DNA of 64,000 nt, taken from the sequence record NC_018855.1. One strand, given 5' to 3'. Positions within the stretch are counted from its first letter, which is position 1; every line of letters begins with the position of its first letter. The translations under genes and the position numbers were made by a program. Shown here in pieces: positions 33,019 to 37,471 of the stretch. Below the pieces are notes generated by a model that saw nothing but the letters and a program-made list of their open reading frames with translations, did no database searches and was not told where the DNA came from. This DNA comes from Escherichia phage HX01.

Positions 33019-34104
<1,086 letters not shown>

Positions 34105-34105
<1 letters not shown>

Positions 34106-34786: not shown

Positions 34787-34826
34787 GTTTACAACATGGT
34801 GGAGTTGTGATACTATAACTCTACCA
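34787..34826 (+). promoter_or_regulatory. early promoter with imperfect stem-loop
   Basis: GTTTAC at 34787; GGTGGAGTTGTGATACTATAACTCTACC (arms differ at one position). Confidence 0.5.
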
Positions 34827-34844: not shown

Positions 34845-35081
34845 ATGCTAAGTGAAAACCCAATTACAGTACACGAATTTCAGATTAAAGTAAAAGAATT
34901 TGCTCAAGCACTCATCAATAAAGTGTCTGAACGTTTCCAAGATGCAACATTACGAGTTATTCAAGAATCTCCACGTTCTTTTCTCATAATCGTTAATCCT
35001 AAAGATGGTGACCAAATTACTAATCTTAAATTAGGCAGTGATGGTCTTGTTGAAGCAACTCGAGTATATGGAACACTATAA
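34845..35081 (+). CDS. hypothetical early protein (78 aa)
   Basis: ORF with GAGGAAATAGAA RBS after early promoter. Confidence 0.5.
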   Translation: MLSENPITVHEFQIKVKEFAQALINKVSERFQDATLRVIQESPRSFLIIVNPKDGDQITNLKLGSDGLVEATRVYGTL

Positions 35082-35201
35082 TGAGAGCTATCTCATTACT
35101 ATCGAGAATGGTCATAAATCTGAGCACTACCAACTTAGCCTGTCTAATCCGGTTAAAGGTATTGTTGAATCAGAATCTGTTTATATCTCCTAAGGATTGT
35201 T

Positions 35202-36194
35202 ATGTTACCTGTCATCAGAAAACTTATTTCTCCAAAAGAACTGGCTGAGATTATTCCTTTGTCGGAAGCTTACGCATCACAAGTGGCTTCTCATCGCGAA
35301 CAAGTTAATTCGATTATGAATGGTGAAGACCCACGCAAACTTATTGTTGTAGGTCCTTGTTCAATTCATGACCCTATTGCTGCTGTTGAATACGGCAAAC
35401 GTCTGGCTGAACTTCAAACTCGTCTTCCTAATGTTCTGTTAGTGATGCGCGTTTATTTTGAAAAGCCTCGAACTACCGTAGGTTGGAAAGGTCTTGTAAA
35501 TGATCCATATCTTGACGGAAGTTTTGATATGAACCACGGTCTTATAGTTGCACGAACATTGTGTCGTAAACTTCTACGTATGGGACTTCCATTAGCAACT
35601 GAAGTATTAGACCCATTCACGATTAAGTATCTTTCTGGTATTTTCTCATGGGTTGCTATTGGCGCCCGTACGACTGAAAGTCAGACACATCGTGAAATTG
35701 CTTCAGGTCTACCGATGTGCGTAGGCTTCAAGAACGCAACCAATGGTTCTATTAAAGTAGCTACAGACGCGATGTATAGTGCCGCCTGGCCTCATCGGTA
35801 TATGGGTATGGACGTCGATGGTACTGTAGGCATTGTTGAAGCTGAAGGTAATCAGAATACGCATATCGTATTGCGTGGCGGGACTAACGGCCCGAACTAT
35901 CATTCTTCTGATATTCAAGAAGCTTCTAACAAAGCAAGTGCAGTAGGTCTGAATCATTATGTAATGGTTGACTGTAGCCATGCAAACGCTGATGGGTATT
36001 ATAGCAATCAAATTGGTATTGGTAAAAATTTAGCAGCTAATGATTTGGTCAAAGGAATTATGATAGAATCATTCCTACATGAAGGAAATCAAAAAATTTC
36101 TGATAATATGTCCTATGGCGTTTCCGTTACCGATGCGTGCATCGGTTGGGAACAAACTAAAGAGCTGTTAACTTATATTAATAAGGTTCAATAA
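35202..36194 (+). CDS. 3-deoxy-D-arabino-heptulosonate 7-phosphate (DAHP) synthase, AroG-type class I-alpha
   Basis: 330 aa with hallmark segments GPCSIHDP and EKPRTTVGWKGLVNDP plus GARTTESQTHRE, colinear with E. coli AroG/AroF/AroH; stop overlaps cd start. Confidence 0.85.
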   Translation: MLPVIRKLISPKELAEIIPLSEAYASQVASHREQVNSIMNGEDPRKLIVVGPCSIHDPIAAVEYGKRLAELQTRLPNVLLVMRVYFEKPRTTVGWKGLVNDPYLDGSFDMNHGLIVARTLCRKLLRMGLPLATEVLDPFTIKYLSGIFSWVAIGARTTESQTHREIASGLPMCVGFKNATNGSIKVATDAMYSAAWPHRYMGMDVDGTVGIVEAEGNQNTHIVLRGGTNGPNYHSSDIQEASNKASAVGLNHYVMVDCSHANADGYYSNQIGIGKNLAANDLVKGIMIESFLHEGNQKISDNMSYGVSVTDACIGWEQTKELLTYINKVQ

Positions 36195-36775
36195 TGAAAG
36201 CTAGCACATATCTTCAAATTGCTTATTTGATTTCTCAAGAATCAAAATGTTGTTCATGGAAAGTTGGTGCCGTCATTGAAAAAGATGGACGCATTATCTC
36301 TACTGGATATAATGGCTCACCCGCAGGTGGCGTTAACTGTTGTGAACATGCATCCGAAAATGGTTGGTTGAAGAATAAACCAAGCCCGGTCATCGTTGCT
36401 GGACATAAAGAAGGCACTACAGCATTTGGACGGGCAGATAATTTTGTTTTGGCTAAAGAACATCGGGCCGCTCATAGTGCATGGTCTGCTAATAATGAAA
36501 TCCATGCAGAATTGAATGCAATTTTGTTTGCAGCTCGTAAAGGTAATTCTATTGAAGGTGCTACGTTATATACTACGCTTTCTCCATGTCCTGATTGCAC
36601 TAAAGCTATTACGCAGTCAGGTATTAAAAAGGTTGTATACGCAGAATTATACGATCGATCTCCTGAAAATTGGGCAGACATTCTAAAACAAGCCGGTATT
36701 GAAGTAATTCAGTACTCTCGTAATAATCTTCGTTCTCTGAATTGGGAACAAATCCGAAACTTTTGTGGTGAATAA
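36194..36775 (+). CDS. cd: dCMP deaminase
   Basis: 193 aa (T4 Cd 193 aa); zinc-binding motifs HAELNAI and SPCPDC. Confidence 0.9.
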   Translation: MKASTYLQIAYLISQESKCCSWKVGAVIEKDGRIISTGYNGSPAGGVNCCEHASENGWLKNKPSPVIVAGHKEGTTAFGRADNFVLAKEHRAAHSAWSANNEIHAELNAILFAARKGNSIEGATLYTTLSPCPDCTKAITQSGIKKVVYAELYDRSPENWADILKQAGIEVIQYSRNNLRSLNWEQIRNFCGE

Positions 36776-37073
36776 TATGATTTTAACTGAACAAGAAACT
36801 ATGGTTCTTCGTGAACGTATTAAAACTATTCTGTCTGTAGGCGTTCATTGTGTTGTATTTGAAAAGGCTAACGGCGAGGTACGCACTATGTTTGCTTCGC
36901 GCGATGAACTTGAAGTCAAATATGAAAATAACAATCCAGCAACAGAAGTTCGTTATGAACCTCGTGAATCAGTTCGAGCATTCGATACCAAGTTAGGCCA
37001 GTGGCGTTCTTTCCGCCTTGATAAAGTAATTTCGGTTGATGGTACTCCGGCGGAACGTTTGCTTCTTATGTAA
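36765..37073 (+). CDS. hypothetical protein (102 aa)
   Basis: ORF overlapping cd stop; alternative start at 36777. Confidence 0.5.
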   Translation: MVNNMILTEQETMVLRERIKTILSVGVHCVVFEKANGEVRTMFASRDELEVKYENNNPATEVRYEPRESVRAFDTKLGQWRSFRLDKVISVDGTPAERLLLM

Positions 37074-37130
37074 TATGCTTTACGAATAGTATGGTATTAT
37101 TAATCTATCGTCAAACAACAAGGAAATAAG

Positions 37131-37463: not shown

Positions 37464-37471
37464 TATAAATA
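37464..37471 (+). promoter_or_regulatory. late promoter (TATAAATA) upstream of rIII leader
   Basis: TATAAATA just after gene 31 stop; 116-nt structured leader follows. Confidence 0.5.

Follow-up and report, generated by a model that had tools for sequence, protein, structure and literature searches.

The window analysed here, a 64,000-nucleotide stretch of Escherichia phage HX01 (NC_018855.1), carries on its plus strand an open reading frame (ORF) with an ATG start and a product of 330 amino acids (35202..36194), which an earlier note had linked to class I-alpha DAHP synthases on the basis of signature motifs. All of these motifs were found in the translation, with VGPCSIHDP at residues 50-58, EKPRTTVGWKGL at residues 87-98 and GARTTESQTHRE at residues 154-165. 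As had also been read from the sequence, the gene is located in the pseT-cd interval. Its upstream neighbour pseT (33206..34105) encodes HAD_PNKP (1.9e-58) and AAA_33 domains, while cd (36194..36775, plus strand) encodes a dCMP deaminase of 193 aa incorporating the deaminase zinc-binding domain (dCMP_cyt_deam_1, PF00383; 1.5e-26) and shares 75 % DNA identity over 447 nt with the cd gene of T4. The TAA stop codon of the DAHP synthase gene (36192-36194) has its final A in common with the cd start codon (ATG, 36194-36196), giving the overlap TAATG. With nrdAB, td and frd upstream, and pseT and cd on its flanks, the gene lies inside the nucleotide-metabolism block of the phage. The description of the product as full length has to be qualified, as the protein is 18-26 aa shorter than the AroH, AroG and AroF enzymes of E. 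coli (348, 350 and 356 aa, respectively), and alignment against these shows that it is without 8-9 N-terminal, approximately 7 internal and 5-12 C-terminal residues.

The gap separating cd.3 from cd.2 contains an early-promoter-like site (34788..34816, plus strand; GTTTACA, 17 nt, TG-A-TACTAT), and the T4 early promoter Pe133295 is annotated (misc_feature) in the same gap. The consensus scan as a whole performed at chance, with 19 sites found against 18.7 expected by shuffle, and the assignment of this site thus rests on its positional match with the T4 promoter; the other sites of the promoter and terminator scan were dropped, as their total equals the shuffle expectation. It is likely that 34788..34816 starts a transcript comprising cd.2, a 41-aa ORF, the DAHP synthase gene, cd and 31.1, and no plus-strand terminator-like site was found by consensus scan between this site and gp31. 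A Shine-Dalgarno sequence (AAGGA; 35192..35196, plus strand) is located 5 nt before the DAHP synthase ATG, while the Shine-Dalgarno core of cd (AAGG; 36183..36186, plus strand) falls within the 3'-terminal part of the DAHP synthase coding sequence, 7 nt ahead of the cd start codon. The gene would then probably be transcribed early, from the promoter between cd.3 and cd.2, and be translated from its own strong Shine-Dalgarno sequence.

Family, fold and active site

The phage protein was matched, well above chance level, by the Pfam family PF00793 (DAHP_synth_1; 1.5e-74, 250.8 bits, cut-off 25.5), and passed the class I-alpha family model TIGR00034 (427 bits, cut-off 173.2) as well as PRK12755/NF009395 (454.5 bits, cut-off 343). 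Its residues 1-330 align with profile positions 8-337 of the 341 in PHROG 5045 (1.3e-181), and its best solved relative is AroF (6agm; 2.9e-104). The AF2 model of the monomer (pLDDT 94.4) forms a (beta/alpha)8 barrel with the strands of the beta6a/6b hairpin at residues 198-203 and 209-214, and Foldseek aligned it with the DAH7PS structures 4hso and 1gg1 (TM 0.96, rmsd 1.4 A).

The metal ligands C53, H260, E289 and D311, equivalent to C61, H268, E302 and D326 of AroG, belong to a Cys-His-Glu-Asp set which is invariant in 120/120 aligned homologues. Furthermore, PEP and erythrose-4-phosphate (E4P) are accommodated by R83, K88, R90, T91, G154-A155-R156, K177 and R225 (R92, K97, R99, T100, G163-A164-R165, K186 and R234 in AroG). 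The thirteen metal, PEP and E4P positions are identical (13/13) in the query, the twenty-four other members of its phage clade and E. coli AroF, AroG and AroH, with the replacement of T100 by Ser in a few other bacterial homologues representing the only active-site change. A loss of catalytic metal- or PEP-binding residues, which according to the earlier note would have refuted the assignment, was not observed. KDO8P synthase (KdsA) belongs to the same Pfam family and shares the TIM-barrel aldolase chemistry with PEP, but the phage protein possesses both the KPRT motif, which binds E4P, and the hairpin of type I-alpha enzymes, and the NCBIfam matches comprise aroFGH-type models only, with no KdsA model among them; this alternative was rejected. 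With family models, fold and catalytic residues all in agreement on a phage-borne class I-alpha DAHP synthase, the gene product is most likely, as judged from its sequence, a catalytically competent enzyme converting PEP and erythrose-4-phosphate to DAHP and phosphate.

Isozyme type and the inhibitor-binding site

The phage protein shares 51 % amino acid identity with E. coli AroF, 48 % with AroG and 45 % with AroH, and reached the curated cut-off of neither the AroG equivalog model (NF006723; 365.3 bits, cut-off 568) nor the AroH model (NF009396; 384.7 bits, cut-off 463). The residues that make up the Phe site of AroG, P150, Q151, S180, F209 and S211, are I141, K142, P171, Y200 and G202 in the phage protein. 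The label "AroG-type" given earlier therefore had to be abandoned, with the AroG cut-off missed, AroF the closer relative and the Phe-site residues changed; cut-offs and residues together rule out an AroG identity. Among characterised enzymes the Tyr-sensitive AroF (PDB 6agm/6agl) is the closest; it has the same fold and chemistry, and the phage protein shares with it the Cys-His-Glu-Asp site, the KPRT and GARTTESQ motifs, the beta6a/6b hairpin and a glycine at G202, the position of S211 in AroG, where both AroG and AroH have serine. However, it is 26 aa shorter than AroF, is without equivalents of AroF residues 2-10, and has P151-Q152 replaced by I-K, D156-L157 by G-I, S181 by P, F210 by Y and T224 by A. 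The Tyr-site residues Q152 and S181 thus correspond to K142 and P171, most of the N-terminal part of the Tyr site around N8-I11 has no counterpart, and in view of these replacements and the missing N-terminus, the binding of Tyr in the manner of AroF is not expected.

The Phe site is formed by the N-terminal extension and the beta-hairpin, with the extension serving the site of the neighbouring subunit (PMC4735112). The main chain of the inhibitor is bound by Q151/Q152 and S180/S181, while a salt bridge of D155 stabilises the site (PMC9529685). Feedback resistance results from the AroG substitutions P150L, S180F, F209A and F209S (PMC9529685) and from the loss of Ile11 in AroF (PMC10729320). 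The phage protein is truncated at its N-terminus (35202..35231, plus strand), where its first residue aligns with AroG residue 9-10 and AroG residues 1-9 and AroF residues 1-10 are missing; the AF2 model shows residues 1-10 of the phage protein as coil. No full regulatory extension is thus present, and the same holds across the clade, where at most three residues precede the column of AroG I10 in 25/25 members (none or one in 24/25), as compared to between 7 and 44 in bacterial homologues (n = 98). The codons for I141-K142 and G146-I147 (35622..35642, plus strand) replace P150-Q151 and D155-L156 in the inhibitor-binding helix of AroG, that for P171 (35712..35714, plus strand) replaces the inhibitor-binding serine (AroG S180/AroF S181), and the beta6a/6b regulatory hairpin (35799..35843, plus strand) includes Y200, G202 and A214 at the positions of AroG F209, S211 and T223.

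An unbiased scan of the 330 columns identified seven which are fixed differently in the phage clade and in bacteria (P150I, Q151K, D155G, L156I, S180P, F209Y and T223A in AroG numbering), all of which are in the regulatory region. Four of the seven are among fifteen inhibitor-site positions which had been written down before the scan (hypergeometric p = 9e-5). At the regulatory positions, P-Q, S and F of the bacterial enzymes correspond to I-K, P and Y in the phage clade, with exceptions at one position each in two clade members, one with Pro at 150 (P0022) and one with Arg at 151 (P0020). Some bacterial isozymes with uncharacterised regulation (P0094, Acinetobacter paralogue) likewise have Pro in place of S180, and on its own this residue is therefore not diagnostic. 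The allosteric residues of AroG, AroF and AroH, the conservation of which the earlier note had suggested checking, are not kept; the inhibitor site is rebuilt clade-wide while the catalytic set is intact, and several of the seven replaced positions are known feedback-resistance sites. The phage protein resembles the engineered AroG(fbr) variants (P150L, S180F, F209A/S and D146N) in combining an intact catalysis set with changes at the engineered positions, but differs in that its changes are natural and multiple, are joined with an N-terminal truncation and stand in a protein of 48 % identity to AroG.

These features bear on whether the phage simply supplies the cell with extra DAHP synthase in the form of an ordinary, feedback-regulated, Tyr-sensitive isozyme. 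Such a role would be in keeping with AroF as the nearest characterised relative and the shared Gly202, and some GenBank records name the gene 'aroF, Tyr-sensitive'. It is nevertheless distinctly unlikely, as Lys and Pro take the place of both main-chain inhibitor binders (Q152/Q151 and S181/S180), Ile takes the place of P150 where the P150L substitution is fully resistant, and F209 has become Tyr; furthermore, AroF residues 1-10 are absent where the deletion of Ile11 alone suffices to desensitise AroF (PMC10729320), and the curated AroG and AroH cut-offs are missed. The more probable interpretation is a deregulated enzyme, in which the N-terminal extension has been cut away and the inhibitor-contacting residues replaced, with the catalytic barrel left untouched, in a clade confined to T4-like phages. 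The likeliest consequence would be that Phe, Tyr and Trp are unable to switch off the phage enzyme, and an enzyme insensitive to all three is predicted. The retention of the beta6a/6b hairpin was counted against the deregulated reading.

Each of the seven replacement residues (I141, K142, G146, I147, P171, Y200 and A214) is found in 95 % or more of the phage-clade members, which diverge down to 56 % identity, and 8/13 pocket-lining positions chosen beforehand are strictly invariant as compared to 34 % of all columns. This conservation, which was likewise counted against simple deregulation, is more readily explained by the purposeful rebuilding of a site than by plain decay. The regulatory pocket may thus have been repurposed, remaining allosteric but responding to a different and possibly anionic effector such as chorismate, prephenate or a nucleotide, the last of which would connect it with the nucleotide-metabolism genes nearby. 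In addition to the conserved residues and the retained hairpin, the replacement of Q151 by Lys and of D155 by Gly, which would shift the pocket charge by approximately +2, is consistent with such a role, as are the nucleotide-metabolism neighbours in two lineages, namely cd and, in an unrelated viral contig of 261 kb, a thymidylate kinase gene which the DAHP synthase gene adjoins. However, the phage enzyme is without the N-terminal segment with which the neighbouring subunit closes the pocket, and what remains of this segment, the positions of AroG residues 10 and 13, varies freely within the clade (L/R/N/K/M and I/V/T/S, respectively). A closed ligand pocket is hard to square with a segment that is missing and variable, and the residue conservation may equally reflect packing at the tight-dimer interface. 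A change of effector is therefore considered rather unlikely, and its more specific form, in which the old pocket, now more basic and lidless, senses another metabolite such as a nucleotide or chorismate/prephenate, is improbable; were it correct, entry into the shikimate pathway or the withdrawal of E4P would be tied to the nucleotide economy of the phage.

Distribution, origin and cassette structure

A homologue is carried by 211 phage records (138 at 95 % identity or above), most of which belong to Mosigvirus, within which identities reach 99.7 %. The gene occupies the pseT-cd slot in four genera, Mosigvirus, Marfavirus, Winklervirus and Bragavirus, and annotated carriers include JS09, ST0, F2, SSE1, Marfa, X20, phiP4-3, PEi20, EcS1 and KLB31. 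It is the same gene as PHROG 5045 and the 'phospho-2-dehydro-3-deoxyheptonate aldolase' of T4-like phages in GenBank. The absence from the canonical T4 gene set stated in the earlier note is borne out by the T4 annotation, and the gene maps show RB69 to be without the gene as well. It was conceivable that the gene would prove ubiquitous and already characterised: it is indeed widespread and routinely annotated, PHROG 5045 carries the auxiliary metabolic gene category, and published work counts the gene among auxiliary metabolic genes (PMC11845039; PMC8022965), but no experimental study of a phage DAHP synthase was found in the searchable literature (subscription journals lying outside it), which holds passing annotations only. 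While the gene itself is not new, the regulatory remodelling is, and neither this nor the cassette structure described below features in the PHROG 5045 and GenBank records or in the papers naming the gene.

The phage clade was monophyletic in 200/200 neighbour-joining bootstraps, with or without the signature columns. The best bacterial identity to the phage protein is 50-56 %, and together with the monophyly of the clade and the 51 % identity to AroF this rules out recent capture from an E. coli host. Two sequences (P0094 and P0114) were placed as sister to the phage clade in the first neighbour-joining tree only, and a grouping of the clade with L031 and HJ05 received support in 90/200 bootstraps. 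Pairs of Mosigvirus genes show between two and eight differences each, too few for an informative dN/dS. The DAHP synthases of giant-virus metagenome-assembled genomes (MAGs) in IMG/VR are, like those of the phage clade, class I-alpha enzymes with intact active sites. However, they keep the N-terminal extension along with the canonical P-Q, D, S, F and T, are 41-48 % identical and in some cases are fused to prephenate dehydratase (PDT), and thus fall outside the phage clade; approximately fifty-five giant-virus MAG copies, as well as host-type copies in IMG/VR, keep the canonical regulatory residues. Matches labelled 'Acinetobacter phage MD-2021a' were excluded as phage evidence, since they are bacterial contigs carrying cobS, cobT and clpA, and human-faecal 'Bacteriophage sp.' scaffolds, which are unverified, unannotated and of a different site type, were left out.

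In HX01 the gene forms part of a 1.1-kb module, upstream of which lies the resident Mosigvirus copy of a cd.2 homologue (34845..35081, plus strand; 78 aa, Pfam DUF7320, 1.5e-35), the counterpart of which is named cd.2 in the JS09 and RB69 annotations. The module is bounded on its left by one copy of an imperfect direct repeat (ATAATGAGAGCTATC; 35078..35092, plus strand), which includes the cd.2 stop codon in a TAATG, while the right copy (ATAATGAAAGCTAGC; 36191..36205, plus strand) includes the stop codon of the DAHP synthase gene together with the start codon of cd, again as TAATG. The two copies agree at 13/15 positions, and homology with RB69 ends at 35096 and restarts at 36191. Between cd.2 and the DAHP synthase gene, the 41-aa ORF (35068..35193, plus strand) constitutes, from 35083 on, what is left of the 3' part of a cd.2 homologue of foreign origin, brought in along with the DAHP synthase gene. 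It covers only positions 44-76 of the 78 in the DUF7320 profile, is absent from RB69, and shares merely 10/31 identities with the resident cd.2, compared with 20/31 with the cd.2 C-terminus of a Kanagawavirus-like phage (L021) and 18/30 with that of a Marfavirus (L005), in both of which the cd.2 homologue adjoins the DAHP synthase gene directly upstream. In all likelihood this ORF is a relic and not a working gene. As the module holds this foreign remnant, its source was lateral transfer from another T4-like phage, and in Mosigvirus it was inserted at the cd.2|cd junction.

This landing site also accounts for the overlap of the DAHP synthase stop with the cd start, which the earlier note had taken as translational coupling to the dCMP deaminase gene and as co-expression with the nucleotide-metabolism block. 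The TAATG overlap is specific to Mosigvirus, where it duplicates the cd.2/cd junction of RB69, whereas one or two small ORFs intervene between the DAHP synthase gene and cd in Marfavirus, Winklervirus and Bragavirus. A conserved, operon-like coupling is thereby ruled out, and a functional link with cd, which has an AAGG of its own, does not follow from the arrangement. The synteny and the cassette structure are observed directly in the genomes.

Possible role in infection

DAHP synthase opens aromatic (shikimate) biosynthesis as its flux-controlling enzyme subject to feedback inhibition, and the intact active site and rebuilt inhibitor site suggest that virulent enterobacterial phages of an entire clade possess a form of it that is naturally desensitised. 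On balance, and with moderate confidence, the gene is considered to encode an early-expressed, feedback-insensitive, catalytically competent DAHP synthase of a T4-like phage clade, residing in Mosigvirus on a laterally acquired cassette. Such an enzyme would keep up the flow of carbon from PEP and E4P through DAHP to chorismate in the infected cell, despite the feedback inhibition of the host isozymes and the shut-down of host gene expression. The "metabolic rewiring" proposed in the earlier note is sharpened by the rebuilt inhibitor site, as the phages would override a classic allosteric control of the host, beyond merely adding enzyme. The need for chorismate-pathway flux in lytic infection has so far been guessed at in the literature, and a deregulated phage enzyme would offer an inroad to why an infection of 25 minutes requires this flux or, alternatively, a sink for E4P and PEP. 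It would also provide metabolic engineers with a set of DAHP synthases that work in E. coli and have evolved feedback resistance.

The benefit to the phage may instead lie in such a drain on substrates, with the aromatic products incidental: an unregulated sink would pull F6P and GAP towards E4P and Xu5P, and thus towards pentose phosphates for nucleotides, or would lower PEP. The stoichiometry of these pathways is established, and a sink would need feedback insensitivity. The proposal addresses nothing but the purpose of the enzyme, which could be deregulated all the same. The location of the gene within the nucleotide-metabolism block, and beside thymidylate kinase in the unrelated viral contig, would suit it, but in T4-like early regions the identity of neighbouring genes says little about function, and the gene came to lie directly beside cd through the insertion. 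Furthermore, PEP would be wasted if DAHP accumulated as a dead end, and the downstream enzymes of the host are expected to convert DAHP in any case, which makes substrate drain an improbable main benefit.

A role for the phage DAHP synthase in the arabinosyl-hydroxymethylcytosine (ara-hmC) DNA modification of RB69-like Mosigvirus has next to no likelihood. Its sole support is that the gene is common in Mosigvirus, the type member of which has ara-hmC DNA (PMC6024577), but in RB69, where ara-hmC was demonstrated, the gene is absent and cd.2 abuts cd, so that the RB69 gene map refutes the link. Marfavirus, Winklervirus and Bragavirus are further carriers of the gene, and the ara-hmC papers make no mention of DAHP synthase. 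The absence from RB69 further indicates that the gene is dispensable, at least in the laboratory, and RB69, without the 1.1-kb module, and most other Mosigvirus, with it, constitute natural controls for the predicted effects of the enzyme.

Identity and distribution of the phage enzyme

The DAHP synthase gene occupies positions 35202..36194 on the plus strand, starts with ATG and encodes 330 aa, exactly as delimited in the earlier note, and the three DAHP synthase motifs quoted there occur in its translation. Its placement between pseT (33206..34105; PNKP phosphatase and kinase domains) and cd (36194..36775; dCMP_cyt_deam_1, 1.5e-26) was likewise correct, with a WYL_2/gp31.1-like ORF and then gp31 located past cd. 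Over 5 kb, the region shares 98.9 % identity with Escherichia phage F2, and its gene order is that of JS09, so that the window can be assigned to Mosigvirus.

Comparison against family models supported the proposed DAHP synthase identity, with the query matching Pfam DAHP_synth_1 (1.5e-74) and scoring 427 bits on the NCBIfam aroFGH equivalog, above its cut-off of 173, and 454 on the PRK12755 subfamily model, whose cut-off is 343. The finer label 'AroG-type' had to be abandoned, as the query reaches neither the AroG equivalog (365; cut-off 568) nor the AroH model (385; cut-off 463). Amino acid identity is highest with the Tyr-sensitive E. coli isozyme AroF (51 %), followed by the Phe-sensitive AroG (48 %) and the Trp-sensitive AroH (45 %), and AroF also represents the closest solved structure (6agm, 2.9e-104). 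Confidence in the AlphaFold2 model is very high (pLDDT 94.4, pTM 0.92), and the model matches type I-alpha DAH7PS structures from N. meningitidis and E. coli with a TM of 0.96 and an rmsd of 1.4 Å. All four metal ligands and all nine PEP/E4P residues are retained, and these thirteen positions are identical throughout the phage clade (25 T4-like-phage DAHP synthases) and the three E. coli isozymes, with T100->S in a few of the remaining homologues as the sole active-site variation. The family models, fold and complete active-site residues thus identify the query as a DAHP synthase and not a decayed copy; by residues and predicted fold, the phage protein is conserved, structurally intact and catalytically equipped. 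KDO8P synthase identity is ruled out by the aroFGH models, the DAH7PS fold and the active-site residues.

The query belongs to PHROG 5045 ('phospho-2-dehydro-3-deoxyheptonate aldolase', auxiliary-metabolic-gene category; 1.3e-181), and tblastn detected a homologue in 211/50,697 phage records. These include 138 Escherichia or Shigella Mosigvirus records at ≥95 % identity, 47 records at 60-80 %, including Klebsiella, Enterobacter, Edwardsiella, Erwinia and Serratia phages, and Proteus and Providencia phage homologues near 58-61 %. The gene is annotated in nearly all 211 records, is named in passing in the phiC120 genome paper (PMC8022965) and was considered an auxiliary metabolic gene (AMG) in a Klebsiella phage study, where a role in aromatic amino acid supply was guessed (PMC11845039). 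A literature search, with most subscription journals outside it, returned no biochemical or genetic study of a phage DAHP synthase. Of the two objections anticipated in the earlier note, that the gene might prove ubiquitous and already characterised, the former stands in that it is widespread, while the latter is limited to passing mentions. At the gene level it is already known and routinely annotated.

Genomic slot, probably inserted module and expression signals

The gene occupies one slot in four genera, represented by Mosigvirus JS09, Marfavirus P545, Winklervirus X20 and Bragavirus phiP4-3, in the order pseT, small ORFs, a cd.2 homologue, the DAHP synthase gene, cd, 31.1, gp31 and rIII, with one or two small ORFs between the DAHP synthase gene and cd in the latter three phages. 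The corresponding slot is filled by cd.1 in T4 and is empty in RB69, where cd.2 abuts cd. DNA comparison showed that RB69 lacks exactly positions 35097-36190 of the window, and this module is edged by an imperfect 15-nt direct repeat (13/15 matching), with the left copy ATAATGAGAGCTATC at 35078..35092 and the right copy ATAATGAAAGCTAGC at 36191..36205. The DAHP synthase stop (TAA, 36192-36194) and the ATG of cd do have one base in common, giving the TAATG overlap previously described and interpreted as translational coupling. Both repeat copies contain a TAATG stop/start junction, and the overlap with cd thus duplicates the junction of cd.2 and cd.

The DAHP synthase gene is separated from cd.2 by a 41-aa ORF (35068..35193, +), a hypothetical protein in GenBank records, whose match to the cd.2 family, DUF7320, is confined to the C-terminal half of the profile (positions 44-76). 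It shares 20/31 and 18/30 identities, respectively, with the Kanagawavirus-like and Marfavirus cd.2 homologues found just upstream of the DAHP synthase gene, compared with 10/31 for the resident Mosigvirus cd.2. It looks like a truncated second cd.2-family copy, a relic of the transfer that would have brought in the DAHP synthase gene. The observations are most simply explained by entry of a fragment from another T4-like lineage, comprising the 3' end of cd.2 and the DAHP synthase gene, into the cd.2/cd junction of a Mosigvirus ancestor. Under this insertion reading, RB69 would either have kept the site unoccupied or have lost the module precisely, through recombination between the repeats.

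The RB69 cd (NC_004928, 133742..134251) is annotated with 169 aa, as opposed to 193 aa in the window and T4. The annotated start may lie too far downstream, given that RB69 has the window's ATAATGAAAGCTAGC where cd.2 meets cd. The gp31.1/WYL_2 ORF was called mechanically at 36765..37073 (+), with a GTG start overlapping the cd end; in JS09 gp31.1 starts at an ATG two bases past the cd stop (36777 here, giving 36777..37073, +), which is probably the true start.

A promoter-like site (GTTTACA and TG-A-TACTAT, separated by 17 nt) occurs at 34788-34816 in the cd.3/cd.2 gap, where T4 has an annotated early promoter, and no plus-strand terminator-like site was seen in the scan between it and gp31. 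Both the DAHP synthase gene and cd have a Shine-Dalgarno sequence of their own, the former a strong AAGGA 5 nt ahead of it, the latter an AAGG 7 nt ahead. The promoter consensus scan as a whole yields no excess above shuffles, so that it is by position that early co-transcription of the gene with cd appears likely. A MotA-box-type middle-promoter match (TATGCTTTA ... TATTAT; 37074..37100, +) is found just upstream of gp31 (37131), and the late-promoter match TATAAATA (37464..37471, +) just past gp31, upstream of rIII (37588).

Regulatory site of the phage clade

In an alignment of the query, 120 database homologues and the three E. coli isozymes, the 25 phage clade sequences (319-343 aa; 56-98 % identical to the query), all from phage or phage-like contigs (P0022, one such protein, was checked), were sharply split from the bacterial sequences. 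The clade was recovered in 200/200 NJ bootstraps, also without the signature columns, and in 185/200 replicates after other viral sequences were added. None of the bacterial sequences exceeds about 56 % identity to the query, which rules out a recent donor. The N-termini of the clade proteins correspond to AroG residue 9-12 and leave no more than three residues ahead of the AroG-I10 column (0-1 in 24/25) against 7-44 in 98/98 bacterial sequences. An unbiased scan for columns ≥95 % fixed in the clade and ≥85 % fixed in bacteria, with differing residues, returned only 7/330: P150->I, Q151->K, D155->G, L156->I, S180->P, F209->Y and T223->A (AroG numbering). All seven fall in the helix, loop and beta6a/6b hairpin forming the inhibitor site, and four are on a 15-position inhibitor-site list set before the scan (hypergeometric p = 9e-5). 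The allosteric-residue comparison proposed in the earlier note thus finds this site systematically altered throughout the clade. In the paper on the 1KFL structure, Phe is reportedly also contacted by Asp6, Asp7, Ile10 and Ile13 of the neighbouring AroG subunit.

At the enzyme level, the phage protein is, judged by its sequence, a distinct phage-specific class I-alpha DAHP synthase variant with a truncated regulatory extension and a seven-residue inhibitor-site signature, a combination of which no published description was found in the literature searched. Feedback-resistant AroG variants include P150L, S180F and F209A/S, the main chain of bound Phe/Tyr is hydrogen-bonded by Q151/Q152 and S180/S181, and a D155 salt bridge stabilises the inhibitor site (PMC9529685), while AroF is desensitised by deletion of Ile11 (PMC10729320). 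With the aromatic-amino-acid site altered, the phage enzyme would not respond to Phe, Tyr or Trp and, if made early in infection, could continue to convert PEP and E4P to DAHP even with the isozymes of the host inhibited and its gene expression stopped. That ordinary Tyr-type regulation persists in the phage enzyme is very doubtful. The replacement residues are strongly conserved and 8/13 pocket positions are invariant within the clade, compared with 34 % of columns overall, so that a rebuilt site, serving as a structural plug or as a pocket for a new ligand, fits better than simple decay. This conservation would also suit a pocket that now answers to a new effector, which is nevertheless unlikely. 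S180->P by itself is not diagnostic, being shared by bacterial isozymes, namely P0094, encoded in a uvrC-pgsA context on a chromosome, and a paralogue from Acinetobacter. Because of the pocket conservation and these bacterial occurrences, a 'deregulated' DAHP synthase is considered reasonably probable rather than firmly indicated.

The phage could gain aromatic amino acids, chorismate-derived cofactors (folate, quinones) or an E4P/PEP drain favouring pentose phosphates. RB69 has arabinosyl-hmC without the DAHP synthase gene, which excludes a role for the enzyme in making this modification. An AMG in a T4-like phage will not surprise the specialist; the noteworthy part is the putative clade-wide, natural feedback-resistant architecture. 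The insensitivity is a simple testable prediction, for which RB69, lacking the module, provides a natural control.

Other viral and bacterial copies

Among the compared loci, the T4-like IMG/VR loci L019-L028 carry the signature. Canonical regulatory residues are present in about 55 giant-virus-MAG copies (IMG/VR), some fused to prephenate dehydratase, and in several host-type AroF copies in IMG/VR; the signature is not a general trait of virus-associated DAHP synthases. Proteins of ~650 aa on GVMAG and other contigs (L057, L066, L070, L079-L081, L085-L087, L089, L095, L096) have canonical regulatory residues, and the one member scanned, L085, is a DAHP synthase-prephenate dehydratase fusion (PF00793 + PF00800); these contigs may include contaminating eukaryotic or host DNA.

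Two further bacteriophage lineages show changes that partly resemble those of the phage clade. The residues are P-N, H155, P180, Y209 and S223 in L031, which with L032 belongs to a large viral contig (IMG/VR UViG 3300028829_003504, 261,788 bp). Its DAHP synthase gene (L031:2971..4020) has a topoisomerase-IB-like gene on one side and a thymidylate kinase gene on the other, the start of the latter overlapping the DAHP synthase end. Adjacency to nucleotide genes in two lineages (cd and this thymidylate kinase) is only a hint to the payoff. Aeromonas phage HJ05, the second lineage, has the non-canonical residues A-H, P155, P180 and V209. L031 and HJ05 group only weakly with the T4-like clade (90/200). 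HJ05 (OQ594355; L014) is a 79 kb phage, not T4-like, whose 387-aa DAHP synthase (CDS 3899..5062) is annotated as 'hypothetical'; the next gene (CDS 5196..5546) encodes an Acb2/Tad1-like anti-defence sponge (Pfam 8.5e-17).

The two aroF genes of 'Acinetobacter phage MD-2021a' are not of phage origin: L017 (CAKLQH020000056) and L018 (CAKLQH020000043) are bacterial chromosome contigs with cobS, cobT, clpA, clpS and fadH and locus tags near 3,700-3,980, and the record appears to be mislabelled. A bacterial subgroup comprising P0094 (L010, JGI Ga0495607_0000243), P0114 and the L018 Acinetobacter paralogue has non-canonical regulatory residues (A/T-G at AroG 150-151, Pro 180, His or Phe 209), with uvrC, pgsA and a response regulator as chromosomal neighbours, and emerged as sister to the phage clade in just one NJ tree.
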